Position numbers and translations under genes: made by a program
Notes under the pieces: model-generated
What the model was told of the DNA's origin: nothing
What the model saw: the letters and a program-made list of their open reading frames with translations, nothing else
The model's database searches: none
Origin: Escherichia phage HY02
Length of the DNA stretch: 64,000 nucleotides
Sequence record: KM092515
Reading direction: 5' to 3' (one strand)
In this document: positions 9,012-32,227 of the stretch, one piece after another
Layout of the letters: each line of letters opens with the position of its first letter
Position numbering within the stretch: position 1 is the stretch's first letter

Positions 9012-9302
9012 ATGGCTATTATCAAAAACGTTGTAATTCCTGCAAAAACTCGTGATGACGCTCGCATTATGGCGAAAAAGTTAGGCGGGAAAGTGGTTGA
9101 CAACGGAAAACAATCTGCTGTAAGATGGGGTGTGAAGGCTGATAAACAGTTGAAGCTAAAAAATTCACCAATAAACCTTTTTGCATGTGTAAACACTATC
9201 GGGAAGACAAATGTATACACGAAAAAGGCATATATTAGACGCGTAGTCTTAACATCCCCCATTCGTACAATGAGAGGTTATGCAAAGCTGAAAATTAACT
9301 GA
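9012..9302 (+). CDS. hypothetical small early protein
   Basis: ORF preceded by CCTAAATTGGAGATTCAAAAATG. Confidence 0.6.
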   Translation: MAIIKNVVIPAKTRDDARIMAKKLGGKVVDNGKQSAVRWGVKADKQLKLKNSPINLFACVNTIGKTNVYTKKAYIRRVVLTSPIRTMRGYAKLKIN

Positions 9303-9316
9303 GAAAGTACTTTACA

Positions 9317-9346
9317 GGGGGCTTAAAAGTTGGTATCTTAAGCCCC
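9317..9346 (+). other. conserved intergenic hairpin (type B)
   Basis: GGGGCTTAA...TTAAGCCCC followed by AGATAAAGAGCTTTAC. Confidence 0.5.
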
Positions 9347-9387
9347 AGATAAAGAGCTTTACATAATCCTAAACTGGAGATTCAAAA

Positions 9388-11197: not shown

Positions 11198-11401
11198 ATG
11201 GCTATTATTAACGGCTTAAACATTGAAACAACACACATCAAAGACATCAAAGTTGGTGATGTAGTCCTTTCCCACGGCGTAGAGAAAACTGTTACTGCAA
11301 AGGATATTAAAGAGGATTCTTTCATGGGTAGAACTCTCTTCGGTGATTCTTATTGCTTAGGTTATCTTGCAGTTTTAAAAGTTGTCAAAAATAATCGTTA
11401 A
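11198..11401 (+). CDS. hypothetical small early protein
   Basis: conserved type A leader upstream. Confidence 0.65.
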   Translation: MAIINGLNIETTHIKDIKVGDVVLSHGVEKTVTAKDIKEDSFMGRTLFGDSYCLGYLAVLKVVKNNR

Positions 11402-11413
11402 AGTACTTTACAA

Positions 11414-11442
11414 GGGGCTTAAAAGCTGATATCTTAAGCCCC
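11414..11442 (+). other. conserved intergenic hairpin (type B)
   Basis: GGGGCTTAA...CTTAAGCCCC. Confidence 0.5.
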
Positions 11443-11486
11443 AGATAAAGAGCTTTACCACTAAATCCTAAACTGGAGATTCAAAA

Positions 11487-12980: not shown

Positions 12981-13511
12981 ATGAACAAATTTCAAGCTAT
13001 CAACTTCATTCGTTCAAATGCTGTAATGTCTAAGCCTGTTAAAGATACCTATGAATTTCGTTGCAATGGTGTACACTTTGCAACCATTACCAAATCAGAA
13101 AACGGGGCTTATTACGTCCATCGTCGTAATGTTTCCACCGTTGTAGTCTCTCACTTTATGCAAGCTGTCGCGGAACTTCTCCCGATGTTTTTAGGTCTTT
13201 ACTTAGATGATTGTAAAAACGTTCACAATCACGTTAAAAACCTTTTAAATGGTTATAAAATGGCTTATGAACGTTCTATCAAGTCCTTGAACAAGTTCTA
13301 TAAAGCACCTGTAAATACCGTTTCAATGGCCTACGGCATAGGTGGCTGGACTGTTAACCTTTCTCTAGTGGAAGAAATCGAGCTTTATGATTTACGTCCT
13401 AGCGGTTACTCTAAGACACTGGGAGAAGGTTTAACGTTCAATATCAAGAACTTAGAAAAAACTTTAAAAGATATTGAAAAAGACATTGACGAGACAATCA
13501 AAAATCTGTAA
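12981..13511 (+). CDS. hypothetical small early protein
   Basis: conserved type A leader upstream. Confidence 0.65.
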   Translation: MNKFQAINFIRSNAVMSKPVKDTYEFRCNGVHFATITKSENGAYYVHRRNVSTVVVSHFMQAVAELLPMFLGLYLDDCKNVHNHVKNLLNGYKMAYERSIKSLNKFYKAPVNTVSMAYGIGGWTVNLSLVEEIELYDLRPSGYSKTLGEGLTFNIKNLEKTLKDIEKDIDETIKNL

Positions 13512-13577
13512 ATTGTCAATCAACGGGGAGGGGATGACCTTCCCCACTAAATAAAGTCCTAAACTGGAGTTATCAAG

Positions 13578-13841
13578 ATGGAAAACGTAGAATTAACCAC
13601 ACTATTGCAAATTGCAACTGACAAAGAAGACGTAGCACTGTTTCACCGCATCGAAAGCGATTTGTTCAATGGTGAAATCATCAAAGAATCTTATGAAGTT
13701 GTCGGATTCAAAGATGGTAAAGCGTTTGGATTCTTTGACCTCGACAAAAGCAACGCGGTTATAAAATATGATGTTTTATCTTGTGAGATTCTTACAAAAT
13801 ACAACGAAAAAAGGCTTGCAACATACGCCAACATGCAGTAA
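13578..13841 (+). CDS. hypothetical small early protein
   Basis: type A leader with variant RBS CTGGAGTTATCAAGATG. Confidence 0.6.
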   Translation: MENVELTTLLQIATDKEDVALFHRIESDLFNGEIIKESYEVVGFKDGKAFGFFDLDKSNAVIKYDVLSCEILTKYNEKRLATYANMQ

Positions 13842-13906
13842 ATTACTAATCAACGGGGAGGGATGGCCTCCCTACTAAATAAAACCTTAAACTAGGAGAT
13901 TCTAAA

Positions 13907-14155
13907 ATGGCTACTATCCGCGCAACTGTTAACGAATTCGGCTTTTGCTCTCTGGATGTTAAATTTGACCTTGTAGGCACTGATAACGCCTTTGAGATGG
14001 TGAAAGGTCTTATCTGTCAGACCATCAAAGACTATAACCCTTCTGATGAGTTCTGGAAAGAAACAAAACAGGAAGTTCTTAAAGAGGGTTATTCTTATCA
14101 CTATTGGGGTGAAAAAATTGTCTCCCTGTACTACGACAAAGAAGGTACTAACTAA
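13907..14155 (+). CDS. hypothetical small early protein
   Basis: conserved type A leader upstream; last gene before the terminator. Confidence 0.6.
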   Translation: MATIRATVNEFGFCSLDVKFDLVGTDNAFEMVKGLICQTIKDYNPSDEFWKETKQEVLKEGYSYHYWGEKIVSLYYDKEGTN

Positions 14156-14195
14156 ACGCCGCAACGGGGCTAAATAGCCCCAGATACCTTTATAC

Positions 14196-14218
14196 AGCCC
14201 CTCACAGGGGCTTTTTTA
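14196..14218 (+). terminator. intrinsic terminator ending the early + strand block
   Basis: AGCCCCT-CACA-GGGGCT followed by TTTTTT; a second hairpin GGGGCTAAATAGCCCC lies at 14166-14181. Confidence 0.7.
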
Positions 14219-14219
14219 C

Positions 14220-15849
14220 GTCTATCCAATCCTTATACAATACCTTTCCTCACCTTTTCAGAATCTTATCAGACCTTAAAAGCAATAACTCTATAGTCTA
14301 CTCTATAGCCTTTTATCAAATCAACTTAAATATAAGCCAATAACCCCAGAAAGGGGATGGCCCATTTAAACGCTCTATAAAGCGCTATAACAGCCTTATC
14401 AACCTAACTTAAGGGATTGCATTAACTCACCCTTAAAAGCTCTTTACAGGGCTTTATAGAGGCTTAAAAGAATCTTATAAGGGTATAAGCTAATAGGTTG
14501 GCTAGTATCTTGTGAATAACTAAACAATCCCCTTGATAGTCACTAAAAAGTATGTTATAGGGGGCTATAAAGTTACTTCAAAGTTACGTGATAGATAGCT
14601 TAAAAGTTACGTAAATGCTAGCCCCCTTAACATTTTCTTAACAATTTCTTAACAATCCCCTACATAGTTATGCTTGTTAGAGACTTGTTAGCCCCTTGTT
14701 AAATCTCTGTTACAACCACGTAAAAGCCTTGTAAGAACCTTTGGCATAGCCTTAAAAGCCCCTGTAAAGCCCTATAAAGAGCTATCCATACAGTTGAGGG
14801 GTAAATACTAGGAAGAGGCTTAAAAGAACTTATAAGGGGCTATAGAGAGCTTTTAAGAGGCATGTTTAAGGAATCACTAAGAAATAAAGGGAACTATAAG
14901 AAAAGAGATAGTGACCATGTTAATAGCTTGTTAAAAAGATTAAACACTTGTTAGAAACTTGTTAATTATCTTAACAAAAATAACTCTTTAAAATTAACTT
15001 GTTAGCTCTTGTTAGTCATCTGTTAAGATTCTGTAAAGCCTATTCAGCACTTGTTAGAAAACTGTTACAGCCTTGTTAGTTCTGTTAAGAACCTGTTAAT
15101 ACCTTTGAAGAGTTGTTAAGAAGATGTGAGAACTGTTAAGAGATTGTTAAGGATATTTTAAAATTTTGCAAAGTACTTGTAAGGGAGCTGTTAAGGGCTA
15201 CCAAGCAGATATACATCTTCTACAGATATTTTTCAGTTCCTTCAAAGACCCTAAAAAATGACTTGATAGCCCTATTTTATAAAAATTTTAAAATTCTGAA
15301 TAATTACCTAGACAGTCTTTTAAAAATACAGGCATAAACAGGCTTATAAGATACCTTGTTAGTACCGTGTTAGACCTTGTGGGGTAAGGTCTGCAAAGAT
15401 ATTCCTGTTAAGTTTGTTAAAACAGTCTATATAGAGGCTTAGTATCCCCTAGTGAACACCTATAGAGGGTAACATAGCTAACCTAATGGGTTACTGTTAA
15501 GTAACACAGATAACCTAGAGATTAAGAGGTGTATAGGAGCTTCTAAGATGGTGTAGAGAGATGGTTAAGGTGATTGTATAGGTTGTTAAGAAGGCTTGTT
15601 AGAGGGCTTGTTAGAAGGGCTATACAGAGGGGCTATTAAGACCACTAGATAGATACTAAGATACTATATAGTACTATATAACTATATATAGAGAGTAAGC
15701 TTAAGAAGGTTGTTAAGAAGGGTAGATATTTTATTCACATATGATGGTGACCCAGAGGTTGGGACAACCGATAAAATTTTATAAAAAATATAAATTTCGT
15801 AAATTTTACTCAATAAAAAGCCCCCAATTAAGGAGGCTCTTAAGATATT
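14220..15849. repeat. ORF-free region with dense short direct repeats (CTTGTTAG / CTGTTAAG family) and an AT-rich CTATATA tract; candidate origin or regulatory hub
   Basis: no ORF over 1.6 kb; more than 25 copies of (C/G)TTGTTA(G/A) and CTGTTAAG, densest at 14930-15200; CTATATA three times at 15661-15695; recurring CTTAAAAG/CTTATAAG/CTATAAAG words at 14340-14870. Confidence 0.6.
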
Positions 15850-16443
15850 TTAAATCAGTGTTTCCAGAACTGTTTTTAATGATGACTTGGTTGTCTGATA
15901 AAAATGAGTGAATCCATTGTTGTTATCGAATATCTGCATCATGATATCATCTCCCTTGATTGGGTACACTCGGATATCATAGTGAAAACCATTAAAGACA
16001 CAAGAACCACTACAGAATGCTCTAAAGTCATCCACTGAGATATACTCTTCATGACCTGTGATTTTTATACAGACGCCTTTACTCGGCCTCTTAGGGTTGA
16101 TATCTTCCATCACAGACATACTCTGCCCACCAAGAGATACCATAGTGACTACTTTACGGTTCTTCTGTCTAAAGTACATCTTAACTTTCTGTAAAGTGTC
16201 TTCATAGAACGGATAAGACTTCTCTACAAAGATTCCTTCTAATGGCTCTTTACCGTTTACAATACCTCTGGTATGACGTACTGAGAAGATAAGTTGCTCT
16301 AGTATGTCAAGGCTTTCTTCGGATAGTGCTTCCCGAATATCATTCCAGTCAAGGACTAGATAGTTGCCTTCAACTTCTTTTAAGTTATCTTTTTCCATAT
16401 CTATCACACCATTATCGTAAAACTTGGTAATCTGGAACAGCAA
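15850..16443 (-). CDS. hypothetical protein
   Basis: 197-aa ORF at the 3' end of the - strand block. Confidence 0.5.
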   Translation of the reverse strand: MLFQITKFYDNGVIDMEKDNLKEVEGNYLVLDWNDIREALSEESLDILEQLIFSVRHTRGIVNGKEPLEGIFVEKSYPFYEDTLQKVKMYFRQKNRKVVTMVSLGGQSMSVMEDINPKRPSKGVCIKITGHEEYISVDDFRAFCSGSCVFNGFHYDIRVYPIKGDDIMMQIFDNNNGFTHFYQTTKSSLKTVLETLI

Positions 16444-16876
16444 ACTTGTTATCGTTGTTCTTAATGAGGTCTTCTTCTGTTACTAAGAATGTAAGACCAC
16501 ACAAGTGTGTATATCTGCTATCATACTCAAATATTTTAAGTAAGTATTTACCATCGTGATAAACAGATTCTACTACACCTTTTGCAACAATCTTTCCAGT
16601 CTTGAAGTCTTTAAGAGGGTATACGTTACCAACTTTAGGAACTGTTTTCATCTCAGGTTCTTTTAGCTTCTCACCAACTTCTACATCACCTAGTAAGTGA
16701 GAACTTTCAAAAGCTACATGTTGCATATAAGCCTCTGAGCATTCCCAGATAAAGCAACTTACAAGAGCCTTAGCAGCATGTCTTGAACAATTCAACTTAT
16801 CACAAATCTCTTTGTACATTTCATCTTTAGTTGAGTTGTTAAGCATTGCTTTTTGAACTACTTCTTTAATTTTCAT
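16412..16876 (-). CDS. hypothetical protein
   Basis: 154-aa ORF. Confidence 0.5.
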   Translation of the reverse strand: MKIKEVVQKAMLNNSTKDEMYKEICDKLNCSRHAAKALVSCFIWECSEAYMQHVAFESSHLLGDVEVGEKLKEPEMKTVPKVGNVYPLKDFKTGKIVAKGVVESVYHDGKYLLKIFEYDSRYTHLCGLTFLVTEEDLIKNNDNKFAVPDYQVLR

Positions 16877-16929
16877 TTCGCTACCTTCTAAGTTCCTACA
16901 AAGGGGCTATCAAGTAACCCCTCGAGTTA

Positions 16930-17154
16930 CTACTCAGACTTTTCAGTCTTCTTATCAGATTTCTTACTAGTCTTCTTCTCAGCTTTCTGCTCAGGTTCCT
17001 TCTCAGAAGTTGCCTTGATAACCGTATCAAGAAGCTCTGATAAGTCACTCTTCAGCAAAGTAACAGGCTGCTCATTGTAGAAGTTTTTGTCAAGATAAAC
17101 TTTAAATTCTTCTATAGAAGGGAATCCAAAAATTGGTACAGGTGTCTTAATCAT
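16930..17154 (-). CDS. hypothetical lysine-rich small protein
   Basis: 74-aa ORF with KK-rich C-terminus. Confidence 0.4.
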   Translation of the reverse strand: MIKTPVPIFGFPSIEEFKVYLDKNFYNEQPVTLLKSDLSELLDTVIKATSEKEPEQKAEKKTSKKSDKKTEKSE

Positions 17155-17230
17155 TACTTAGTTTCTCCATAGGCATCTTTTAAGATTGCCTTGTTAATCA
17201 TTTCAGCGATTGCAAAACGAACACATACAG

Positions 17231-17764
17231 CTATAATTGTAGGTTGCATTCTTTACTTACCTCTTCCAGTTTAACCTCAGAATCCTTAAGACGTTTCTTA
17301 TGAACTCTGAATCTCATTAGTGCGATGATGATACCAACTAAAGGAACAGCATACAAGTACCAAACATCATATACCTTTGCATTAATCTGTGTAATGGTTA
17401 AGTCTTGAGCTATGGAACTGATTGCTGATACTGCCAGTAATGTTGCTAGGAAAAATGCCAGTACCATAACAATACTTAAACAACCTCTGGCATGGTGTTC
17501 ATGCTTAATGCACTTATTCTTTTCGTCAACAACCCTGTTGTAGTCATTTGTAAAGTCTCTGTAGAAAGCTTTCAAGTATTCTTGACTGTAGCCTTCAAAG
17601 CAACCTGTACCGTACCAATAATCACCACCAAAATGTGCTATAATACCGGTATCTCCATTTGGTTTGGTTACTCTCAAAGAAGTATGATGACGAGTATCCT
17701 GATAATCTATTTTATATCTTTCTTCGTAAATCATTTTCCAACCCCTCTCAATCGTTTGTTCCAC
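17231..17764 (-). CDS. hypothetical membrane protein
   Basis: two hydrophobic segments (LSIVMVLAFFLATLLAVSAI, VPLVGIIIALM). Confidence 0.5.
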   Translation of the reverse strand: MEQTIERGWKMIYEERYKIDYQDTRHHTSLRVTKPNGDTGIIAHFGGDYWYGTGCFEGYSQEYLKAFYRDFTNDYNRVVDEKNKCIKHEHHARGCLSIVMVLAFFLATLLAVSAISSIAQDLTITQINAKVYDVWYLYAVPLVGIIIALMRFRVHKKRLKDSEVKLEEVSKECNLQL

Positions 17765-17964
17765 TCAAGGTCAACAAGTCTTTGTAGGACTTTACCTCTA
17801 GGTGTTACACCTTTTAAATCTGCATCGTAGCAACGGTAAAAGTCACCTTCAGCGTGTTTACCATAGCATTTTCTGATATTCTGACTTCTACGGTATTGTT
17901 CTAATAGAGACAGTCTGTAGTAATCTTCAACTGTAGTTAGTTTTTTCATTCTTTCACCACGCAT
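17731..17964 (-). CDS. hypothetical protein
   Basis: 77-aa ORF. Confidence 0.4.
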   Translation of the reverse strand: MRGERMKKLTTVEDYYRLSLLEQYRRSQNIRKCYGKHAEGDFYRCYDADLKGVTPRGKVLQRLVDLEWNKRLRGVGK

Positions 17965-18032
17965 CTTCTTAAGAAACTAAAAAGGGAACTACCTCTCGAT
18001 AGCTCCCATCATAGTTAACATTGTATATTCGG

Positions 18033-18614
18033 TCAAGAGTATTTTTTAGGCAGTAATGCGCTACGTTTGTTACTCTCTTCACTCAACAGTGCGATGAAGT
18101 CATCACCTTTGCCTTTCCACGGGCTGAATGAAGGGATATGTTCACGAATAGCCTCAATAACCGTCTTAAGTGCTGTATTTTTCATCCACCAATCAGAGTC
18201 TGCTGATGCCACTACGTAGTATCCACCTTCATCAGTCAGAATTGGCTCTGAGATACATGGTGAAATCAGAGTGGTGACGATTGAACCATTATTCATGTAG
18301 TATGTGCGCTTCATAACCTTTTCAAGAAGCTTGTGAAGGTCACCAAACAGTGTTACAAGCTCTTTATGGTCAATGTCTTTTTCGAGATTTGCTCGATACT
18401 TCAAAAGTGCAGCATCAACTTCTCTGTCATTAAACTTGAAGTACTGGACTTCCTCAACAAGACAAACACTGATGTTGTTGACATTCATAGTCAACTTGCA
18501 GACTTTTGCAGAAGAATTGATATTTGGTTGAAAAAGTGCAATACACCCTTCAATGTTTCCAAAATGTTGTACTAATGTCACTTGTGGAGTGATACTCTGT
18601 TGCTCTTCGGACAT
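18033..18614 (-). CDS. hypothetical protein
   Basis: 193-aa ORF. Confidence 0.5.
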   Translation of the reverse strand: MSEEQQSITPQVTLVQHFGNIEGCIALFQPNINSSAKVCKLTMNVNNISVCLVEEVQYFKFNDREVDAALLKYRANLEKDIDHKELVTLFGDLHKLLEKVMKRTYYMNNGSIVTTLISPCISEPILTDEGGYYVVASADSDWWMKNTALKTVIEAIREHIPSFSPWKGKGDDFIALLSEESNKRSALLPKKYS

Positions 18615-18958
18615 TACAGTTTCCTCATTAAATACTTTTTAAGTTGTGTGTTAGGTTTCTCAAAAACTTCTATAGAAGATATCTTGACAGACTCACCACG
18701 CATACCTGTATGTTTAAATATGTAATACTCTAACATCCCTATGTACTTTGCTGGTAAGTCATGTTTGACATACACTGTTACAGAATCTTCAAACTCAACA
18801 ACCTTTGTACCATCTTTGTAGTTGAACTCTTTAGGATGGTTGTAGTTGTCTATGTCATACATTAAAAAGAGTCTTTTACGTTGTAAGTCAAGCTTATTGG
18901 TTAAAGACTCTTTAATATCTGAGAAGTTTTTGTACACTGTGACATGGAGCTTACTCAT
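18614..18958 (-). CDS. hypothetical protein
   Basis: 114-aa ORF, coupled to neighbours. Confidence 0.5.
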   Translation of the reverse strand: MSKLHVTVYKNFSDIKESLTNKLDLQRKRLFLMYDIDNYNHPKEFNYKDGTKVVEFEDSVTVYVKHDLPAKYIGMLEYYIFKHTGMRGESVKISSIEVFEKPNTQLKKYLMRKL

Positions 18959-19244
18959 CGTTAAACTCTCTGACGAAGAAATAGTTGACTTTATTATTAC
19001 CTACCATAAGGTCAAAGCAGGTATTCTCAAAAGGTTTGTTGTAGGCATCGTATGAAGTGTACGTATCAGCTACTTGTTTAGTATTGAGCTTTTTACTTGA
19101 TGGGTTTAAGAGGCCACCATACAGCTTCTTGATAGCCTCTTCTACAACAGACCAGATGATTTCGTCAGTAATTTCTTCGTACAGGTCAAGTTCACGCTCT
19201 AGTGAGAAGTCACAAATAGGGAAGATAACCTGTACTTTGCTCAT
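18951..19244 (-). CDS. hypothetical protein
   Basis: 97-aa ORF. Confidence 0.5.
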   Translation of the reverse strand: MSKVQVIFPICDFSLERELDLYEEITDEIIWSVVEEAIKKLYGGLLNPSSKKLNTKQVADTYTSYDAYNKPFENTCFDLMVGNNKVNYFFVREFNDE

Positions 19245-19639
19245 TAACGAATAACCTGTGAAACTTGAATTGCTTCAGTTACAGACAAATCACCAACTTT
19301 CTCTTCTTTGATGAAAGTAAAGGTGAGTTCAACAGGTTCTTGCTCTTCTTGCTCAACTGGAATACCGTTAAGCTCATCAAAGATTGATTGGGTAGTCCAG
19401 TCTTCTCCACCATCTGGATAGTGGATGGCATAAAGAGGAAACTCTAAATTATACCAAGCAAAAACAGGGCAACCATCTGCATCATCTCGACATCTGTGGA
19501 GATATGTGTTTGTACCTTCAAAATGCAAATGGAGATTACCATTCTTCTCAAAGAGAAGAGCATCTTTCAGGTCTAGTTCCTCATTTTTGCTGTAACGGCT
19601 GACATCAACTTTAACGTGAATATGACTGTTATTATTCAT
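19244..19639 (-). CDS. hypothetical protein
   Basis: 131-aa ORF. Confidence 0.5.
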   Translation of the reverse strand: MNNNSHIHVKVDVSRYSKNEELDLKDALLFEKNGNLHLHFEGTNTYLHRCRDDADGCPVFAWYNLEFPLYAIHYPDGGEDWTTQSIFDELNGIPVEQEEQEPVELTFTFIKEEKVGDLSVTEAIQVSQVIR

Positions 19640-22914: not shown

Positions 22915-23306
22915 AGATAATCCTCTTGTCTTCTGTAATTTTGAAAGAACAGGTACAGACCAATTTCAGAGGATGAATAGTAGAGTAACTCTACCCTTTT
23001 TGATTCCTTACAGTGATTGGTATTTTTACCTTTCTTCGGGTTATTTGATTTTCTCATTAAGTCTCCTTTGTAGAACAAGGCAGACCTACAGCTTTAAGTA
23101 AGATGGTACAGTAATCCATACAACAAGTCAAGAACTATTACAAGTTAAAAAAGTTGTTGACAAAGTACTTGACAAGGTGTAGGCTTATAAATACTTAGAA
23201 GATAACTTAAAAGGTTCCTCTAAAAAGGCTATTTAAACAGATATCTTTCTGGATATCTATCTTTTATCTTAAAAGCCTTTTAAGAGGTCTTATAAGAGGC
23301 ATACCA

Positions 23307-25340: not shown

Positions 25341-25417
25341 CTCTGTTTAGCTCAGCTTGGTAGAGCGTTCCGTTTGGGGCGGTAAGGCCGGAGGTTCAAG
25401 TCCTCCAACAGAGACCA
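25341..25417 (+). tRNA. tRNA-Pro (UGG)
   Basis: acceptor CTCTGTT/AACAGAG, T-arm GGAGG-TTCAAGT-CCTCC, encoded CCA; anticodon loop TTTGGGG. Confidence 0.55.
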
Positions 25418-25424
25418 AATTAAT

Positions 25425-25502
25425 GTTCCAGTAGACAAAATGGTATAGTCACCACTCTTTCAAAGTGGATATTTGAGGGTTCAAATCCATTCTGGAACGC
25501 CA
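25425..25502 (+). tRNA. tRNA-Glu (UUC)
   Basis: acceptor GTTCCAG/CTGGAAC, anticodon arm CCACT-CTTTCAA-AGTGG, TTCAAAT T-loop with imperfect T-stem. Confidence 0.5.
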
Positions 25503-25509
25503 GTTTTGA

Positions 25510-25582
25510 CAGAAGACCAATTACAGCAAACTTAATCTTATTCATCTGAAGGTAAATCGGACAAAGAAGAGATTTGGTCTGG
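25510..25582 (+). ncRNA. Y-RNA-like element 1 (stem-closed, no tRNA-like domain)
   Basis: 5' CAGAAGACC-AATT...ACAGCAAA and 3' ATTT-GGTCTGG can pair as a terminal stem. Confidence 0.4.
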
Positions 25583-25593
25583 TCATTAAGAAT

Positions 25594-25670
25594 TGCGGGT
25601 ATAGAGAAAGGGCGTCTCACATGTCTCATTAGCATGGTATCGGCAGGTTCGACTCCTGCACCCGCCTCCA
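25594..25670 (+). tRNA. tRNA with CAU anticodon (Met or Ile2), atypical D region
   Basis: T-arm GCAGG-TTCGACT-CCTGC, acceptor TGCGGGT/ACCCGCC with 1-72 mismatch, anticodon arm CATGT-CTCATTA-GCATG, encoded CCA. Confidence 0.4.
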
Positions 25671-25676
25671 ATTTTG

Positions 25677-25736
25677 CAGAAGACCGTATTCAGCAATAAA
25701 CTACTTTTTGCGGATAAAAGAAAAAACACGGTCTGG
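25677..25736 (+). ncRNA. Y-RNA-like element 2
   Basis: 5' CAGAAGACC-GTAT...TCAGCAA and 3' ACAC-GGTCTGG; stem bases co-vary relative to element 1. Confidence 0.4.
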
Positions 25737-25747
25737 CAACGTATTAA

Positions 25748-25821
25748 GGTTAGGAAGCACATGAGGTATGTGCGGTCGCCTGTTAAGCGAATGGCACAGG
25801 GTTCGAATCCCTGACTAACCG
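25748..25821 (+). tRNA. tRNA-Asn (GUU)
   Basis: acceptor GGTTAGG/ACTAACC, D-arm GCAC..GTGC, anticodon loop CTGTTAA, T-arm CAGGG-TTCGAAT-CCCTG. Confidence 0.6.
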
Positions 25822-25832
25822 CAAATTTAAAT

Positions 25833-25920
25833 GTGTCGTTATCCCGTAGATGGTAGCGGTGGGGACTGTAAATCCCTTGTCATTGAGACTCGGTAGGTTC
25901 GACTCCTACACGGCACACCA
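25833..25920 (+). tRNA. tRNA-Tyr (GUA), long variable arm
   Basis: acceptor GTGTCGT/ACGGCAC, anticodon arm GGGGA-CTGTAAA-TCCCT, T-arm GTAGG-TTCGACT-CCTAC, encoded CCA. Confidence 0.6.
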
Positions 25921-25981
25921 ATTTTGAGAGGGCTATTTAGCCCCTCCCTTAAAGGGTTCTTACGAGTATCCTTTAAAGGAG

Positions 25982-26054
25982 CAGAAGACCAAATACAGCA
26001 AGTTATTTAAAATTTCAAGCCAATTCAATTTTGAAAATTTAAAACTTGGTCTGG
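25982..26054 (+). ncRNA. Y-RNA-like element 3 (YrlB-like, no tRNA-like domain)
   Basis: 5' CAGAAGACC-AAAT...ACAGCAAG and 3' CTT-GGTCTGG; interior holds an AT-rich palindrome. Confidence 0.4.
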
Positions 26055-26067
26055 CTCAACAAATTTA

Positions 26068-26199
26068 CAGAAGACCGTTTACAGCAAAACTTAAACAATC
26101 TATTTCTCCGGTAAAGAAAAGGCGAAGGTTCGATTCCTTCACTCGGCAGATGTCGAGTTGGTGTAATGGTAGCACTTAAGATGATAAACAACGGTCTGG
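26068..26199 (+). ncRNA. Y-RNA-like element 4 (YrlA-like) with permuted tRNA-like domain
   Basis: terminal stem AGACCGTT/AACGGTCT; internally T-arm GAAGG-TTCGATT-CCTTC (26124-26140), acceptor-like helix ACTCGGC/GTCGAGT capped by AGAT (26141-26158), D-arm GTGT-AATGGTA-GCAC (26161-26175); T-arm precedes D-arm. Confidence 0.55.
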
Positions 26200-26204
26200 T
26201 AATT

Positions 26205-26339
26205 ATCTTTGTAGATAAGTTATTAAGCTTACCTGTGAGTATGCGACCACAAAGGTGAAAGGGTAAATTCTAGATTTAAACCCAAAAAGACACATCGCTA
26301 CAGACCTTAAGCAAGTCTGGGTAGCTTATCTACAAAGAT
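26205..26339 (+). repeat. structured element closed by a perfect 15-bp inverted repeat
   Basis: ATCTTTGTAGATAAG (26205-26219) and CTTATCTACAAAGAT (26325-26339) flank about 105 nt containing hairpin CAGAC-CTTAAGCAA-GTCTG. Confidence 0.5.
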
Positions 26340-26347
26340 AATTTAAT

Positions 26348-26423
26348 GGAAGTGTAGCAGAATGGTGATGCGGCAGACTTTTAATCTGACAGGCGATGGG
26401 TTCGAATCCCTCCACTTCTACCA
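26348..26423 (+). tRNA. tRNA-Lys (UUU)
   Basis: acceptor GGAAGTG/CACTTCT, anticodon stem CAGA/TCTG with loop CTTTTAA, encoded CCA; T-stem has two mismatches shared with the CUU paralogue. Confidence 0.5.
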
Positions 26424-26427
26424 ATAT

Positions 26428-26504
26428 GGTTCAGTCGCAGATAAGGTAATGCAAGGGTCTCATAAGCCCTATGAATGTGGGTTCGATTCCCATCTGAACC
26501 TCCA
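26428..26504 (+). tRNA. tRNA-Met (CAU)
   Basis: acceptor GGTTCAG/CTGAACC, anticodon arm AGGGT-CTCATAA-GCCCT, T-arm GTGGG-TTCGATT-CCCAT, encoded CCA. Confidence 0.65.
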
Positions 26505-26505
26505 A

Positions 26506-26581
26506 GCTGGTATAGTTAAGAAGGTTATAACACTCCCCTGATAAGGGAACATCGGTGGTTCGATTCCACCTACCAGTACCA
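26506..26581 (+). tRNA. tRNA-Ile (GAU)
   Basis: acceptor GCTGGTA/TACCAGT, D-arm GTTA..TAAC, anticodon loop CTGATAA, T-arm GGTGG-TTCGATT-CCACC, encoded CCA. Confidence 0.65.
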
Positions 26582-26596
26582 ATTTCAATAAAGTTG

Positions 26597-26625
26597 TTGA
26601 CATTGAGATGTGACTACTTTATAGT
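26597..26625 (+). promoter_or_regulatory. internal sigma70-like promoter within the tRNA cluster
   Basis: TTGACA, 17-bp spacer, TATAGT. Confidence 0.5.
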
Positions 26626-26828
26626 AACCTTAGTTTTCGTTGCGTAGCGTCTATTTTGCAAATTTAAAATAAATGCAAACGACAATGTTTTTCTGGCAGT
26701 AGCTTGATAGGCTAAACACCAGTGAGGTCTTCCAATCCCTCATCAAAGAATTTGGCGTACTCGCCCACGGTATGATTAATAAGGTGGGCATCTTTAAGGG
26801 CTTTCTAAGAGAGTCTTTAAAGATTAAT

Positions 26829-26905
26829 GCACCCTTAGTTCAATTGGATAGAGCAACGGTCTTCTAAATCGTTAGTTACAGGTTCGAATCCTGTAGGGTG
26901 TGCCA
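26829..26905 (+). tRNA. tRNA-Arg (UCU)
   Basis: acceptor GCACCCT/AGGGTGT, anticodon arm ACGGT-CTTCTAA-ATCGT, T-arm ACAGG-TTCGAAT-CCTGT, encoded CCA. Confidence 0.65.
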
Positions 26906-27047
26906 ATTAGTTAGCAGATTACTTAGACGACCTAAGCGGGTCTTCCTGTAGGGAGGTGGTCTGTATCTCATGTTTTCCAGAACATGTAAATAATCTGAGA
27001 AGGGGCTTTACAGTGTTGAGATAATACGGTAAGCTTCGAATTATAGT

Positions 27048-27130
27048 ATGGGACGATGTTAAGACTCTAAGGCATGAGCAACGGCCTCCAAAACCGTTTC
27101 AAAGGGGTTCAACTCCTCCGTCCCATGCCA
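27048..27130 (+). tRNA. tRNA-like gene, possibly Trp (CCA); oversized D region
   Basis: acceptor ATGGGAC/GTCCCAT, T-loop TTCAACT, anticodon-like loop CTCCAAA, encoded CCA; 83 nt and D-arm not foldable by eye. Confidence 0.35.
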
Positions 27131-27143
27131 AAGTCTTATTAGG

Positions 27144-27231
27144 GGTAGGTAGCGGCTAATGGTAGCCAAACTGTCTTGAAAACAGTTGCCACTGTAGAGA
27201 TACGGTGAGGGTTCGACTCCTTTACTTACCG
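27144..27231 (+). tRNA. tRNA-Ser (UGA), long variable arm
   Basis: acceptor GGTAGGT/ACTTACC, D-stem GGC/GCC, anticodon arm AACTGT-CTTGAAA-ACAGTT, T-loop TTCGACT. Confidence 0.55.
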
Positions 27232-27489
27232 CCTAATAAGATTTTAAAGCCAAGCTTCATTCGGATGTTGCTTTGGTATCCCTCGTGTATTGTCGTACAC
27301 ACTGATAAAACACCTAGTAGGTGTCACGGAGAAGAGATAATATCAAGCTCTCCAAAGGTTCTAGTCACCGGATTAAACAAGACTATGCAAAGGCCTTTTT
27401 AGGTCTTTTTAGAGGGCTTCTAAGGTTATTACGGCTTGTTGTGGAACCTTGTTGCTTAGGTTCTTAGAAGTTCTCTAAAAAGATTTAAT

Positions 27490-27567
27490 GGGAGATTGAC
27501 GGTAATTGGTAAACCTACCATCCTTAGAAGTTGGTGTTTGAGGGTTCGAATCCCTTGTCTCCCACCA
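27490..27567 (+). tRNA. tRNA with UAG anticodon (Leu-type) but short variable arm
   Basis: acceptor GGGAGAT/GTCTCCC, T-arm GAGGG-TTCGAAT-CCCTT, anticodon loop CTTAGAA, encoded CCA. Confidence 0.4.
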
Positions 27568-27574
27568 AATTAAT

Positions 27575-27650
27575 GCAGGTGTAGCAAAATGGTTATGCGG
27601 CTGACTCTTAATCAGTAAGACGATGGGTTCAATTCCCTCCACCTGTACCA
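27575..27650 (+). tRNA. tRNA-Lys (CUU)
   Basis: acceptor GCAGGTG/CACCTGT, anticodon stem CTGA/TCAG with loop CTCTTAA, encoded CCA; body paralogous to 26348-26423. Confidence 0.5.
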
Positions 27651-27656
27651 AACAAT

Positions 27657-27732
27657 GGGGTCATAGTTTATATGGTTAAAATTCGAGTTTTGCAAACTTG
27701 GGAACTGAGTTCAATTCTCAGTGACTCCACCA
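27657..27732 (+). tRNA. tRNA-Ala (UGC)
   Basis: acceptor GGGGTCA/TGACTCC, anticodon loop TTTGCAA, T-arm CTGAG-TTCAATT-CTCAG, encoded CCA. Confidence 0.6.
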
Positions 27733-27738
27733 ATTAGT

Positions 27739-27813
27739 GCATCCATAGTTTAAACGGGAAAATTACAGTCTTCCAAACTGAGGTTGAGGGTTCGATTCCC
27801 TCTGGATGCTCCA
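27739..27813 (+). tRNA. tRNA-Gly (UCC)
   Basis: acceptor GCATCCA/TGGATGC, anticodon stem CAGT/ACTG with loop CTTCCAA, T-arm GAGGG-TTCGATT-CCCTC, encoded CCA. Confidence 0.65.
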
Positions 27814-27820
27814 AATTAAT

Positions 27821-27896
27821 GCTCCTATCGTATAATTGGCTATTACGGTTGCCTTGTAAGCAACTTATCAGGGTTCGAATCCTTGTGGGAGCACCA
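27821..27896 (+). tRNA. tRNA-Thr (UGU)
   Basis: acceptor GCTCCTA/TGGGAGC, anticodon arm GTTGC-CTTGTAA-GCAAC, T-arm CAGGG-TTCGAAT-CCTTG, encoded CCA. Confidence 0.7.
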
Positions 27897-27993
27897 ATTT
27901 AGAGGTCAAGTGAAAGACCGCTTTGAGTCAACTGAAGACCGTAACAAATTCCACGGAGTTGAGTTAGCGGCACAACTTCAGACCTCTTTTCAC

Positions 27994-28068
27994 ACTCGCT
28001 TAGTTTATATGGTAAAACATCACCCTTACAAGATGAAGAAAAAGGTTCAAGTCCTTTAGTGAGTACCA
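27994..28068 (+). tRNA. tRNA-Val (UAC)
   Basis: acceptor ACTCGCT/AGTGAGT, anticodon loop CTTACAA, T-arm AAAGG-TTCAAGT-CCTTT, encoded CCA. Confidence 0.6.
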
Positions 28069-28069
28069 T

Positions 28070-28147
28070 GTTCCAGTATCCCAATTGGCAGAGGATGCAA
28101 GCTCAAACCTTGTACTAGTGACGGTTCGAATCCGTCTTGGAACACCA
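28070..28147 (+). tRNA. tRNA with CAA anticodon (Leu-type) but short variable arm
   Basis: acceptor GTTCCAG/TTGGAAC, anticodon arm GCAAG-CTCAAAC-CTTGT, T-arm GACGG-TTCGAAT-CCGTC, encoded CCA. Confidence 0.45.
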
Positions 28148-28152
28148 ATTTT

Positions 28153-28228
28153 GCAGGATTAGTTCAAATGGATAGAGCAACAGTCTACGAAGCTGTTAAT
28201 AGGGGTTCGAATCCCTTATCCTGCGCCA
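28153..28228 (+). tRNA. tRNA-Arg (ACG)
   Basis: acceptor GCAGGAT/ATCCTGC, anticodon arm ACAGT-CTACGAA-GCTGT, T-arm AGGGG-TTCGAAT-CCCTT, encoded CCA. Confidence 0.65.
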
Positions 28229-28247
28229 ATTTAAAGAGGCTATTTAA

Positions 28248-28805
28248 ATGAGATACTTGAAGTATGCTTCATGGATTTTCTTAGCTTTGCTAGAACCATT
28301 GGCAGCAATCTTAGCAGTTATCTTAGCACCTTTTGTAGTTCCATTTTACAGTGAGAAGAAAGGACACTTACCTTTTGGATTCAGATGGATGGAGACATAT
28401 GACAACCTGATTGATGGTGATGAAGGTCACGTTAAAAGATGGGCTAAGATTAGAAAGATTGGTAAGCTTGGTGTCTATTTGCAGAGAGTTGGATGGCTCT
28501 GGAGAAACAAAGCTTATAACTTCTCTTACCATGTGTTAGGAAGAGATGTAAAAGATGTTACTAAGTGGAAAGGTAATATCAACGTAAGTTCTGACCCTGA
28601 AGATAATCAGACAGGTTATCTCCTAATGTGGAACAGTAATGCTTGGGGATTATTCGCTTTTATCCCATCAATTAAAGTCTTTGGTAAACAATTCTACTGG
28701 AGAATTTATGTTGGATGGAAGCTAAAAAGTGTTGTCCCAGAAGAAAGAGCATTCTCAAGGGAAAGAGTTATGTTGGCATTCTTTATTCATCCACTGAGAA
28801 AGTAA
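28248..28805 (+). CDS. hypothetical membrane protein embedded in the tRNA cluster
   Basis: 185-aa ORF with N-terminal hydrophobic helix (IFLALLEPLAAILAVILAPFVVPF); lies between tRNA-Arg and tRNA-Gln. Confidence 0.5.
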   Translation: MRYLKYASWIFLALLEPLAAILAVILAPFVVPFYSEKKGHLPFGFRWMETYDNLIDGDEGHVKRWAKIRKIGKLGVYLQRVGWLWRNKAYNFSYHVLGRDVKDVTKWKGNINVSSDPEDNQTGYLLMWNSNAWGLFAFIPSIKVFGKQFYWRIYVGWKLKSVVPEERAFSRERVMLAFFIHPLRK

Positions 28806-28813
28806 AGATTTAA

Positions 28814-28889
28814 AGGGGATTAGTTTACAAGGTTAAAACCTCGGTCTTTGAAATCGAAGAAGTTGGTTCAATTCCAACATCCCCCGCCA
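28814..28889 (+). tRNA. tRNA-Gln (UUG)
   Basis: acceptor AGGGGAT/ATCCCCC with unpaired 1-72, D-arm GTTT..AAAC, anticodon arm TCGGT-CTTTGAA-ATCGA, T-arm GTTGG-TTCAATT-CCAAC, encoded CCA. Confidence 0.65.
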
Positions 28890-28891
28890 AT

Positions 28892-28970
28892 GCTCCATTA
28901 CTCCAATTGGCAGAGAGGCCAGACTTAAAATCTGTGTTATGTATCGGTTCGAATCCGATATGGAGTACCA
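28892..28970 (+). tRNA. tRNA with UAA anticodon (Leu-type), atypical architecture
   Basis: acceptor GCTCCAT/ATGGAGT (alternative TACTCCA/TGGAGTA), anticodon stem CAGA/TCTG with loop CTTAAAA, T-arm ATCGG-TTCGAAT-CCGAT, encoded CCA. Confidence 0.45.
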
Positions 28971-28975
28971 AATTT

Positions 28976-29051
28976 AGCGGTATAGCATAACTGGCAATGC
29001 AGCAGTCTCTGAAGCTGTCTTATTAAGGTTCAAATCCTTATGCCGCTGCCA
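28976..29051 (+). tRNA. tRNA-Gln (CUG)
   Basis: acceptor AGCGGTA/TGCCGCT (A1-U72), D-arm GCAT..ATGC, anticodon arm GCAGT-CTCTGAA-GCTGT, T-arm TAAGG-TTCAAAT-CCTTA, encoded CCA. Confidence 0.55.
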
Positions 29052-29082
29052 CTTCTAAGGATTCTTACGAGAGTCCTTAGAA

Positions 29083-29158
29083 GTGGCCTTATCATAAATG
29101 GTAATGACCCATGCTGTGAACATGGTCTATACGGGTTCAAATCCCGTAGGTCACCCCA
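29083..29158 (+). tRNA. tRNA-His (GUG)
   Basis: acceptor GTGGCCT/AGGTCAC, anticodon arm CCATG-CTGTGAA-CATGG, T-arm ACGGG-TTCAAAT-CCCGT, encoded CCA. Confidence 0.7.
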
Positions 29159-29163
29159 ATTTA

Positions 29164-29240
29164 TAGTCCAAGTAGCTTATATGGTTAAAGCGCGTGTCTG
29201 AAAAACATGAGAAGAGGGTTCAAATCCCACTGGACTACCA
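29164..29240 (+). tRNA. tRNA-Phe (GAA)
   Basis: acceptor TAGTCCA/TGGACTA, D-stem GCTT/AAGC, anticodon arm CGTGT-CTGAAAA-ACATG, TTCAAAT T-loop; spacing between acceptor and D-stem is non-canonical. Confidence 0.5.
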
Positions 29241-29256
29241 ATTTCAAAGGTGCTTA

Positions 29257-29991
29257 ATGAAAGAGATGACAGAACAAGGTAAGGAGATTTTTAATCTCTT
29301 AAAAACTGGTAAAGGGTTTTCTAACCCCCTTATTACTGGTGCAGCAGTTCTCGGTGGAACCGTAGCTGCCTCTACATCACTTGTAAGCTCTATTAGCTCT
29401 GTATCAGACCCTACAGTAAAGGATAAGCTTGTTGCTGCTGGACTTACAACAGTTCTGCTTAACAGCTTTACCACGAGTCTGACAAGCACTACATCAACTA
29501 CCAAAACACTAACAGATTACGGTCAAAAGTCCATTGATGAGTTTTCATCACGTATGCAGGTAGCAAAAGGTTACTCTAATGTTATGGGTGCAGCAGGTGA
29601 ACAAGTTGGCTGTACACCATTTAGTGGTATTATGGGTGTTGCTACAGAGTATGGTCAAAAAGCTATTGATACGATTAACAGTGCACTAGATAGTGTTAAT
29701 GGTGTGTTAAGTGACTTACAAGATGCTATTGACAAAGGTCTTGATACTATTTCTGATTTAGCTGAGCAAGCTGTTAGTAAGATTAATGAAGGTATTTCAA
29801 AAATTACAGCTTATGCAGATGAAGTTGTGCAGATGATTGAAGAAGAAGCTGCTCTTATTGCAGAGTACCTTAAAACGAATATCAATGGGTTCTTAGCAGG
29901 TATCTTACCAGACTGGTTTGATGATGCTTGTAAAACTGGTGTGATTGACACTATTGCAACACCAGAAATGAAGAACGCATTACAGAAATAA
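29257..29991 (+). CDS. hypothetical Ser/Thr-rich protein
   Basis: ORF track start 29194 overlaps tRNA-Phe; in-frame ATG at 29257 follows GGTGCTTA, the same context as the terminase start. Confidence 0.5.
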   Translation: MKEMTEQGKEIFNLLKTGKGFSNPLITGAAVLGGTVAASTSLVSSISSVSDPTVKDKLVAAGLTTVLLNSFTTSLTSTTSTTKTLTDYGQKSIDEFSSRMQVAKGYSNVMGAAGEQVGCTPFSGIMGVATEYGQKAIDTINSALDSVNGVLSDLQDAIDKGLDTISDLAEQAVSKINEGISKITAYADEVVQMIEEEAALIAEYLKTNINGFLAGILPDWFDDACKTGVIDTIATPEMKNALQK

Positions 29992-29992
29992 T

Positions 29993-30085
29993 GGAAGATT
30001 AACCCTAAAAGGTAAGGGAGCAGTTTGCTAAACTGCCAGTAGCTGAGAAATCGGTGTACCAGTTCAAGTCTGGTATCTTCCTCCA
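29993..30085 (+). tRNA. tRNA-Ser (GCU), long variable arm
   Basis: acceptor GGAAGAT/ATCTTCC, D-stem CCC/GGG, anticodon arm GCAGT-TTGCTAA-ACTGC, T-arm ACCAG-TTCAAGT-CTGGT, encoded CCA. Confidence 0.65.
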
Positions 30086-30089
30086 ATTT

Positions 30090-30165
30090 GAATCCGTGAC
30101 AGAAATGGCTATGTGCCTGTCTGCAAAACAGGTTTATAAGGGTTCGAGTCCCTTCGGATTCTCCA
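30090..30165 (+). tRNA. tRNA-Cys (GCA)
   Basis: acceptor GAATCCG/CGGATTC, anticodon arm CCTGT-CTGCAAA-ACAGG, T-arm AAGGG-TTCGAGT-CCCTT, encoded CCA. Confidence 0.65.
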
Positions 30166-30588: not shown

Positions 30589-30609
30589 TTCTATTTGCGG
30601 AGGTGCTTA

Positions 30610-32211
30610 ATGGACTTAAACGCTATTAAGCAGAAGCGAGTGGAAGATGTTAGGAAAGTCCTAGCTGGAGAGTTGGGGCTTTCTGATGAAGTAAAAGAAA
30701 TTATTAAATCATTCGGTAAAGACCCCTCTAAATTCCTTCCAACTCAAATTCTGACTTTATTAAGATACACACCAGACCAAGTTAGACTTATCTTCAAATT
30801 AATGACTGATAAGAACTATGTAGCCCCTCAACCGGGTTCTCAAGAGGTGTTTTTAAATACTAATGCTGACTTGGTTTTATATGGTGGTGCTGCTGGTGCT
30901 GGTAAAACTGCTGCATTGTTAATGGACTCTTTAAGGTTTATTGAAGACCCTAACTATAATGCTGTATATTTCCGTCGAAATACAACACAGTTACAAGGTG
31001 GTTTATGGCCTGCTGCAAAGAAACTATTTGGTAAGTTTGGTGGGGTTCCTCACGAGCAGAAGATGACTATCACGTTCCCTTCTGGGGCAACTATTAAGTT
31101 CACCTACCTAGAACTTGAAAAGCACGCTGAAGGTCATCAGGGTATTGAATACTCAGCTATCTACTTTGACGAAGGTACACACTTCTCTGCTTCACAGATT
31201 TCATACCTACAGACCCGTCTACGTTCTGGTGCTGAAGGTGATTCATACATGAAGATTTCTATGAACCCAGATAGAGACCACTTCATTTATGATTGGGTAG
31301 AACCATTCTTAGATGAAGAAGGTTACCCAGACCCTGAGAAGTGCGGTCGTATTCGTTGGTATGTTATGAATGATGGTGTGATGGTTTCTGATTGGGAGAG
31401 AGACAAGATTCTTGAAATGTTCCCTCTTGAGATTCCTCAGACATACACCTTCATCTCTGGTACGATTGATGATAACCCAATTCTTGACTTCTTAGAACCT
31501 AAATATCGTGGTAAGTTGGAAAACAACACACCTGTAAACGTTGCAAGACTTCGTTTCGGTAACTGGAAGGCTCGTGCAGAAGGTTCAAACTATTGGCAAA
31601 GACAATGGTGTGAGATTGTTGATTCACTACCAGAAGATGTGTTTGATGTCAGAGCATGGGACTTAGCAGCAACTTTACCATCTGAAATTAACCCTAACCC
31701 AGACTGGACAGCGGGTGTTAAGATGGGTAAATCTAAAAAAGACGGTTGCTATTATATCATTGATGTAGTAAGATTTAGAGATAGACCCTCTGGAGTCGAA
31801 ACACAAATTAATTTGACTGCTGAAAGTGACGGTAAGCGAACTGGTATTTTTATCCCTCAAGACCCAGGCGCTGCTGGTAAATCCTATGCAACATCCCTCA
31901 TCAGGAAACTTGCCGAGAAAGGTTATCGCGCAAGAGCTAAACCAACAAATAAAGATAAAGTTACCCGCTTTGCGGGATTTTCTGCTGCTTCTGAAGCTGG
32001 ACTTGTAAAAGTCTTGAGAGGTAGTTGGAACGAAGCTTACTTTCAAGAACTTGAAGGCTTTTGTGGTGATGGTAAAACTAAAGATGACCAAGTGGATGCT
32101 ACCAGTGATGCTTTCAACAGTCTTAACGAAGTTAAATTATTCAAGCCACCATCAATGGGTGCTCACACAGACTTAGTGAGAGGAAACCCATATGAGGGGC
32201 TTAGACGTTGA
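30610..32211 (+). CDS. terL: terminase large subunit
   Basis: Walker A LYGGAAGAGKT near N-terminus; start at ATG 30610 after GGAGG RBS (ORF track start 30595). Confidence 0.85.
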   Translation: MDLNAIKQKRVEDVRKVLAGELGLSDEVKEIIKSFGKDPSKFLPTQILTLLRYTPDQVRLIFKLMTDKNYVAPQPGSQEVFLNTNADLVLYGGAAGAGKTAALLMDSLRFIEDPNYNAVYFRRNTTQLQGGLWPAAKKLFGKFGGVPHEQKMTITFPSGATIKFTYLELEKHAEGHQGIEYSAIYFDEGTHFSASQISYLQTRLRSGAEGDSYMKISMNPDRDHFIYDWVEPFLDEEGYPDPEKCGRIRWYVMNDGVMVSDWERDKILEMFPLEIPQTYTFISGTIDDNPILDFLEPKYRGKLENNTPVNVARLRFGNWKARAEGSNYWQRQWCEIVDSLPEDVFDVRAWDLAATLPSEINPNPDWTAGVKMGKSKKDGCYYIIDVVRFRDRPSGVETQINLTAESDGKRTGIFIPQDPGAAGKSYATSLIRKLAEKGYRARAKPTNKDKVTRFAGFSAASEAGLVKVLRGSWNEAYFQELEGFCGDGKTKDDQVDATSDAFNSLNEVKLFKPPSMGAHTDLVRGNPYEGLRR

Positions 32212-32227
32212 TAGCTAGGTGAGAAGA

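Follow-up and report, generated by a model that had tools for sequence, protein, structure and literature searches.

A gene-free region of Escherichia phage HY02 matches the mapped virion ends of its relatives and carries a helically phased repeat array

What does a phage gain from 1.6 kb that encode nothing and are filled with short repeats? This question is raised by positions 14220-15849 of a 64,000-nucleotide stretch of Escherichia phage HY02 DNA (sequence record KM092515), which we analyzed as a whole and refer to as the window. The initial annotation had described this region as free of open reading frames (ORFs), with iteron-like repeats and an AT-rich tract, and had labelled it a candidate origin of replication, naming partition or packaging sites as further possibilities. 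Here we report evidence that the region includes a single copy of the predicted direct terminal repeat (DTR) of this phage, and that the repeats form a phased and conserved array within it. Sequence comparison places the window in a Felix O1-like myovirus of the genus Felixounavirus; 255 phage records, nearly all of them Felixounavirus or other Ounavirinae, matched the region at 88-93% identity, and 174 of these covered at least 80% of it. The window starts at rIIA, which is also the conventional opening point for Felix O1-type genomes (Whichard et al.). We found the region to be free of ORFs as described: the longest ORF lying fully inside it has no more than 43 aa, and one 56-aa ORF clips its right edge. 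Its position between convergent gene blocks was likewise correct, since the plus-strand block (rIIA to an 82-aa ORF) stops at 14155 and the minus-strand block begins at 15850. In the related records that we inspected, the homologous region was left unannotated or showed nothing more than two terminators or a few small ORFs of doubtful status.

Relatives in which this sequence stands at the genome termini were found by searching with the centre of the region, and two such records carry a terminal-repeat annotation. When both genome ends were compared, exact terminal duplications were seen in Pr103Blw (581 bp), D4 (581 bp), Ro111lw (613 bp) and the Citrobacter Mooglevirus HP1 (570 bp); the Pr103Blw record annotates its 581 bp as a "short direct terminal repeat". 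All four genomes have the same start, AAATGCTA/GCCCCCTTAACATTTTCTTAACAA, and the same end of the repeat, GCTGTTAAGGGCTACC/AAGCAGATATAC, where the slash marks the virion end. The records of Pr103Blw, D4, Ro111lw, HP1 and ZX4221 begin exactly at the homologue of G14621 of the window, those of D4 and NBSal004 end at the homologue of 15202, and E9, ZX4221 and NBSal004 each have one record end at these same boundary positions. Taken together, the virion DNA of seven end-mapped relatives starts at the homologue of 14621 or ends at the homologue of 15202. The ends of relatives had been called by PhageTerm (PMC8303462, PMC6454146, PMC11737134).

Both boundary sequences occur in the window without a mismatch and only once: GCTAGCCCCCTTAACATTTTCTTAACAA at 14617-14644 and TGTTAAGGGCTACCAAGCAGATATACA at 15189-15215. 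The left boundary element, GCTA/GCCCCCTTAACA (14617-14632, plus strand; cut GCTA/GCCCCC), predicts that the left end falls at 14620/14621. From the right boundary element, TGTTAAGGGCTACC/AAGCAGATATACA (15189-15215, plus strand; cut GGGCTACC/AAGCAGATATACA), the right end is predicted to fall at 15202/15203. Because these matches are exact and single, the DTR equivalent is placed at 14621-15202, a 582-bp segment present once in the window. By this homology, 14621-15202 is predicted to be the DTR of HY02 in single copy, as at a concatemer junction or in a collapsed assembly. The packaging site that had been mentioned as a possibility thus received strong support, as the region holds a DTR together with both virion-end positions mapped in close and distant relatives.

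Published DTR lengths in this group are 608 bp for UAB_Phi87, determined by Bal31 digestion and run-off sequencing (PMC4837284), 613 bp for Ro111lw (PMC6454146) and 581 bp for Pr103Blw (PMC8303462). For UAB_Phi87, boundary homology predicts 614 bp. The reported end-bearing SpeI fragments of this phage measure 4322 and 2819 bp, from which a junction fragment of 6533 bp is expected (4322+2819-608), and the only size-matching SpeI fragment in its record, 6568 bp at 13014-19582, contains the homologous region. A placement of the UAB_Phi87 ends at record positions 16763-17336, inside genes, was ruled out by the homologous boundaries and by the four end-resolved relatives.

The repeats themselves proved to be strongly oriented. 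TGTTA occurs 30 times on the plus strand of 14220-15849, where the rest of the window would predict 2.9 (Poisson p ~1e-20), and only 7 times on the minus strand; for the less strict TGTTA[AG], the counts are 27 (plus strand) and 4 (minus strand). The array reported initially is therefore real, but the count of more than 25 copies was too high for the strict patterns [CG]TTGTTA[GA] (16 copies) and CTGTTAAG (6 copies), which total 22, all on the plus strand. The three densest 300-nt windows for the TGTTA-type motif in the whole 64 kb all fall within the region, and the peak (14893-15192, 17 copies) coincides with the 14930-15200 interval that had been singled out as densest.

Inside the predicted DTR, 24 repeat copies are distributed over 582 bp in an ordered manner. 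Just inside the left end, three inverted copies (CTTAACA; 14626-14655, minus strand) are spaced by 11 bp and are kept in 10, 13 and 13 of 13 relatives. They stand head-to-head with four copies of (C)TTGTTA(G/A)/CTGTTA, also at 11-bp spacing (14673-14713, plus strand), and a stretch of ~200 bp without the word separates these from the main array of 16 TGTTA(A/G/C) copies (14918-15195, plus strand). Repeats thus come close to both cuts, with three copies at most 35 nt from the left cut and the last copy of the main array ending 7 nt ahead of the right one. Read inward, the two ends open with a shared element, GCC-CCCTTAACA on the left and GGTAG-CCCTTAACA on the right, and continue with more (C)TTAACA copies. 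The 16 copies of the main array are phased at 10.35 bp (R=0.89), a degree of phasing reached by 1 in 20000 random placements with the same minimum spacing, and a period of 10.3-10.4 bp was found in 15 of 16 genomes (9.9 in Roscha1). Phasing at the helical repeat of DNA implies that the copies all face one side of the helix.

To what extent is this arrangement maintained among relatives? The region was present in all 255-284 related records and was conserved on par with the flanking genes, so that the absence or dispensability in relatives that had been named as speaking against the initial annotation was not seen; the PhageMaP library for the Felixounavirus Bas63 targeted genes only. Between genera, conservation of the non-coding region was 0.69-0.74, compared to 0.52-0.76 for the flanking genes. 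Both boundary sequences were conserved in 16 genomes of Felixounavirus, Mooglevirus, Suspvirus and Kolesnikvirus; in these genomes AAGCAGATATACA after the right cut was invariant and TTACG...TA directly ahead of the left cut was conserved. In an alignment of 14 genomes from three genera, motif columns of the DTR were 96.5% conserved versus 83.2% for its other columns (Mann-Whitney p = 3e-12, with columns that are not fully independent), 11 of the 16 copies in the main array were kept in all 13 relatives, and TGTTA copies outside the DTR were less conserved than those inside (0.725 versus 0.965).

Changes in length followed the same spacing. Six insertions or deletions (indels) of at least 3 nt were found inside the DTR, all of 11, 21 or 22 nt, that is, whole repeat units or whole helical turns, and DTR lengths group near 570, 580, 590 and 613 bp. 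In the Erwinia Kolesnikviruses, BLAST aligned only the last ~120 bp, and the DTR equivalent is 439 bp long, with TTAACA copies in its left half and TGTTAAG in its right half; one run of spacings is much alike in the two, being 11, 9, 20, 20, 20, 11 there and 11, 9, 11, 20, 20, 11 in the window. The region has 35% GC in the Suspviruses SUSP1 and SUSP2, just as in the Felixounaviruses (genomes of 39% GC), although the Suspvirus genomes are reported at ~47% GC, which indicates that its low GC content is maintained against the genome trend. Together, these comparisons indicate purifying selection on the phased TGTTA(A/G) array of the DTR.

Cleavage at the two boundaries is expected of the large terminase subunit (TerL), which we located at 30595-32211 on the plus strand (Pfam Terminase_6N, 8.6e-43, and Terminase_6C, 4.5e-33; PHROG 979). 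The listed TTG start of this gene is probably wrong; at 30611 there is an ATG with a ribosome-binding site. TerL of Felix O1-type phages has been placed in a DTR cluster (PMC4837284). In the window, it is followed by the portal gene (32219-33694), and a head protease is encoded at 34538-35884. We think it probable that the gene-free region is the site of packaging and of termini generation, with the phased array as a loading platform. A packaging protein, either a small-terminase-like factor or the terminase itself, would bind the array cooperatively on one face, wrapping or stiffening ~55 helical turns of DNA. Occupancy of the array would mark the concatemer junction and bring TerL to both boundary elements, which mirror each other. 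If the two boundaries were then nicked in a staggered manner and strand-displacement synthesis followed, every packaged genome would gain a full DTR at each end, as in the nick-and-fill model proposed for T7-type phages. Convergent terminators on both flanks may keep RNA polymerase, and thus transcription, out of the site. A more speculative extension, to which we give only a low chance, is that the DTR acts as a nucleoprotein "ruler": in phages that lack a recognisable small terminase, a protein assembling on about two dozen one-face TGTTA(A/G) sites, mirrored at the ends, would set the cuts whole turns apart and so define the length of the repeat, possibly serving also as a replication start.

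Several observations weigh against a packaging role. No protein is known to bind the repeats. A small terminase was sought beside TerL and none was recognised, the one ORF directly upstream encoding an acidic protein of 66 aa and unknown function (PHROG 4397), and the literature gives Felix O1-type phages an identified large subunit only. Duplication by nick-and-fill is borrowed by analogy from T7, where it is itself not established. The ends of HY02 are placed by homology to relatives, and the published fragment sizes of UAB_Phi87 fit the homologous boundaries only within ~70-110 bp; a probable reason is the difference in length between the deposited record (87,603 bp) and the published genome (87,669 bp). 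Furthermore, the combined AA/TT periodicity, a proxy for curvature, is not exceptional within the window, and we therefore make no claim of curvature. Finally, nine TGTTA copies lie outside the DTR (15357-15715) and are poorly conserved.

Comparison with known systems places the element within a familiar kind of site. The DTRs of UAB_Phi87, Ro111lw, Pr103Blw, D4 and HP1, all Ounavirinae, are homologous to 14621-15202 at 77-93% identity, with identical boundary sequences, similar lengths (570-614 bp versus 582 bp) and the same location between convergent blocks; in the window the repeat differs in being single, unannotated and delimited by homology. The closest mechanistic analogue is the terminal repetition of T7. 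The packaging signals of T7 lie at the concatemer junction, and packaging requires that the repeat be duplicated. Both phages have a short, exact, non-permuted and non-coding DTR, inside and beside which one 7-nt word recurs many times in the same orientation: the left end of T7 carries 11 CCTAAAG heptamers in one orientation within its first 340 bp, spaced by 13 bp, of which 3 fall within the 160-bp repeat and the other 8 directly follow it. The two differ in that there is no sequence homology and the word is another one; the T7 repeat of 160 bp holds 3 copies, whereas 24 are present here; the 13-bp spacing of T7 is not helical, unlike the 10.35 bp of the window, where the ends are also mirror images. 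In T7, moreover, early promoters that face outward come after the left end, whereas both flanks here carry the terminators of inward-facing genes, and T7 has a known small terminase, gp18. The R sites of lambda cosB, the hexamers of P1 pac and the pacL-pacR sites of SPP1/SF6 are short repeats that flank terminase cleavage and support cooperative binding on one face or wrapping of the DNA around an oligomer of the small terminase. These sites resemble the present one in having repeated short elements close to the cleavage points, but they produce cohesive or headful permuted ends instead of exact DTRs and have 3-7 elements rather than 24; those of P1 pac, in addition, contain GATC and are Dam-controlled, whereas the genome in the window is without GATC. 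Small-terminase rings have been reported to select bent pac DNA (PMC4737164).

How do these results bear on the candidate origin? On that interpretation, TGTTA(A/G) would serve as iterons for a phage or host initiator and one of the nearby AT tracts would unwind, the origin lying in or beside the DTR and hence at both virion ends. The array is indeed dense, oriented and phased (27-30 plus-strand copies, 10.35 bp), and direct repeats near helical phase beside AT-rich DNA are also found in iteron origins such as plasmid oriV, lambda ori and SPP1 oriL/oriR, but the unit is much shorter than typical iterons: these are 17-22 bp long, number 3-8 and lie in or beside an initiator gene, whereas here a 5-8-nt word occurs in 24-37 copies, coincides with mapped DNA ends and has no initiator-like gene adjacent to it, the flanking ORFs belonging to families of unknown function without a Pfam match. 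The AT-rich tract described initially was confirmed, as the most AT-rich 40-mer of the window (93% AT) starts at 15771 and the third- and fifth-ranked start at 15273 and 14963, all in the region; the bin containing the first of these (15756-15805) is among the less conserved (0.71), which counts against an origin, and carries indels. Two perfect matches to the DnaA box (TTATTCACA), against 0.2 expected, flank the DTR at 14511-14519 (minus strand) and 15731-15739 (plus strand), but most relatives have lost them, among these every Mooglevirus and Kolesnikvirus genome that was checked, and neither an IHF consensus site nor a GATC cluster was found in the region. Cumulative GC skew, which had been suggested as a check, turns at ~15-16, 23 and 54 kb, each time with a change in gene orientation; as it tracks gene orientation, it is uninformative on the origin. 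Strong conservation of non-coding DNA would suit an origin, and packaging and replication functions can share phage ends. Conservation, however, is highest at the two cut sites and in the repeat copies within the DTR, a pattern that points to end formation. With skew uninformative, DnaA boxes not conserved and no initiator gene or other hallmark found, the candidate-origin headline gained no direct support, and we regard an origin here as unlikely.

About equally unlikely, in our view, is an element of DNA architecture or recombination that acts without terminase loading, for instance a stiff or curved segment or a site for a host nucleoid protein or a phage end-binding protein, which would assist terminal repeats in pairing and in recombining into concatemers, protect the ends from exonucleases or retain the last-packaged end in portal and tail for ejection. 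Helical phasing fits such an element, as does the periodicity of TA, AA and TT dinucleotides in 14901-15226, each in the top 1% of the window, and an array inside a DTR would be at both virion ends by construction. The heptamer arrays of T7, whose left end we checked, provide an analogue to which, to our knowledge, no function has been assigned, and the end repeats of T7 are reported to promote recombination. On the other hand, what is conserved is a specific 5-7-nt word and not composition alone, so that a sequence-specific binder fits better than general curvature; the unremarkable combined AA/TT track counts against this interpretation too, and no IHF or Fis consensus sites were found in the region. 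We consider it highly improbable that the array is a transcription element, in which the repeats would signal pausing or termination or serve as promoters for a phage-modified RNA polymerase, or that the region encodes a non-coding RNA. The terminal repeat of T7 ends in CTATCTGTTACAG, which contains the RNA-polymerase pause signal ATCTGTT of that phage, and the array of the window includes ATCTGTTAAG at 15018 and AACTGTTACAG at 15060; because a T7-type RNA polymerase is not known in the Felix O1-type group, this likeness was dismissed as coincidence. Sigma-70-like promoter matches showed no excess (9 versus 7.3 expected), no Rfam family matched at threshold (a permissive scan gave sub-threshold chance matches only), the motif shows no clustering ahead of genes in other parts of the 64-kb window, and the terminators of both neighbouring blocks face the region.

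These terminators are Rho-independent hairpins that close the two gene blocks, at 14196-14212 on the plus strand and at 15821-15835 on the minus strand, and both point into the gene-free region; the homologous positions are annotated as terminators in AYO145A and Mordin. Between the hairpins, the DTR is flanked by two segments of unique non-coding DNA. The one at 14220-14620, by the right virion end, is conserved at 0.66-0.85 per 50-nt bin (14 genomes) and carries elements of the CTTAAAAG/CTATAAAG/CTTATAAG type. Shortly ahead of the left cut it also has three copies of AAAGTTAC(G/T)T, at 14570, 14580 and 14603; of the three copies of AAAGTTACGT claimed here, those at 14580 and 14603 are exact and that at 14570 has one mismatch. 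The two reported copies of TTCTTAACAAT, on the other side of this cut, are both exact (14635 and 14646). The segment at 15203-15849, by the left virion end, includes the nine further TGTTA copies mentioned above, AT tracts at 15273-15312 and 15771-15810 and a highly conserved block at 15723-15757 (TAGATATTTTATTCACATATGATGGTGACCCAGAGG). The triplet of CTATATA described there was found at 15664, 15674 and 15682 (cluster 15664-15688), with one more copy at 15427.

Other parts of the window share some of the words seen beside the DTR. The 57-bp repeat reported for Felix O1 is present in two copies in intergenic gaps of the early block (9300-9360 and 11400-11460); each consists of a GGGGCTTAA...TTAAGCCCC hairpin between CTTTACA and AAAGAGCTTTAC, and these repeats share CTTAAAAG/CTGTAAAG-type words with the flanks of the terminal repeat. 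In the same word style, the divergent intergenic interval at 23200-23300, between the minus-strand block and the next plus-strand block, contains CTTAAAAG twice, CTTTTAAGAGG and CTTATAAGAGG, and the shared words suggest a second family of short elements, regulatory or protein-binding, that also occurs in the terminal region. We also observed that GATC, the Dam/MboI/Sau3AI site, does not occur on either strand of the 64-kb window, where ~226 sites are expected from base composition, and that it is missing too from the homologous non-coding region of 15 relatives; CGCG is depleted ~10-fold in the window (9 versus 91 expected). A literature search on GATC avoidance in Felix O1 phages was without result, and the Felix O1 genome paper is silent on the point. 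An array of 25 tRNA genes lies on the plus strand at 25341-30165, with a 265-aa ORF (29194-29991, DUF7217) among them.

The presence and length of a DTR in this genus have already been published and annotated in GenBank, and the feature as such is therefore known. Its internal architecture, comprising a phased array under selection, evolution of length by whole-turn indels and conservation across four genera, appears to be undescribed: we found no account of it in the literature searched, and the papers on Ounavirinae DTRs that we searched give length only, with no description of internal repeat arrays found. We suggest "genome termini and packaging region" as the best label in place of "candidate origin". 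The advance, within a kind of system that is already known, is incremental; the addition is modest but can be tested. With predicted chromosome ends at 14621 (left) and 15202 (right), the genome can be oriented and annotated correctly, and a large conserved "empty" region is explained. Phages of the Felix O1 type are widely used in the typing of Salmonella and E. coli, in biocontrol and in engineering, and the location of the packaging signal matters when genomes are rebooted, when reporter or transducing particles are built and when lethal edits are to be avoided. For the biology of this group, the array offers a handle on how T7-type DTRs are recognised and duplicated and on what replaces the small terminase.

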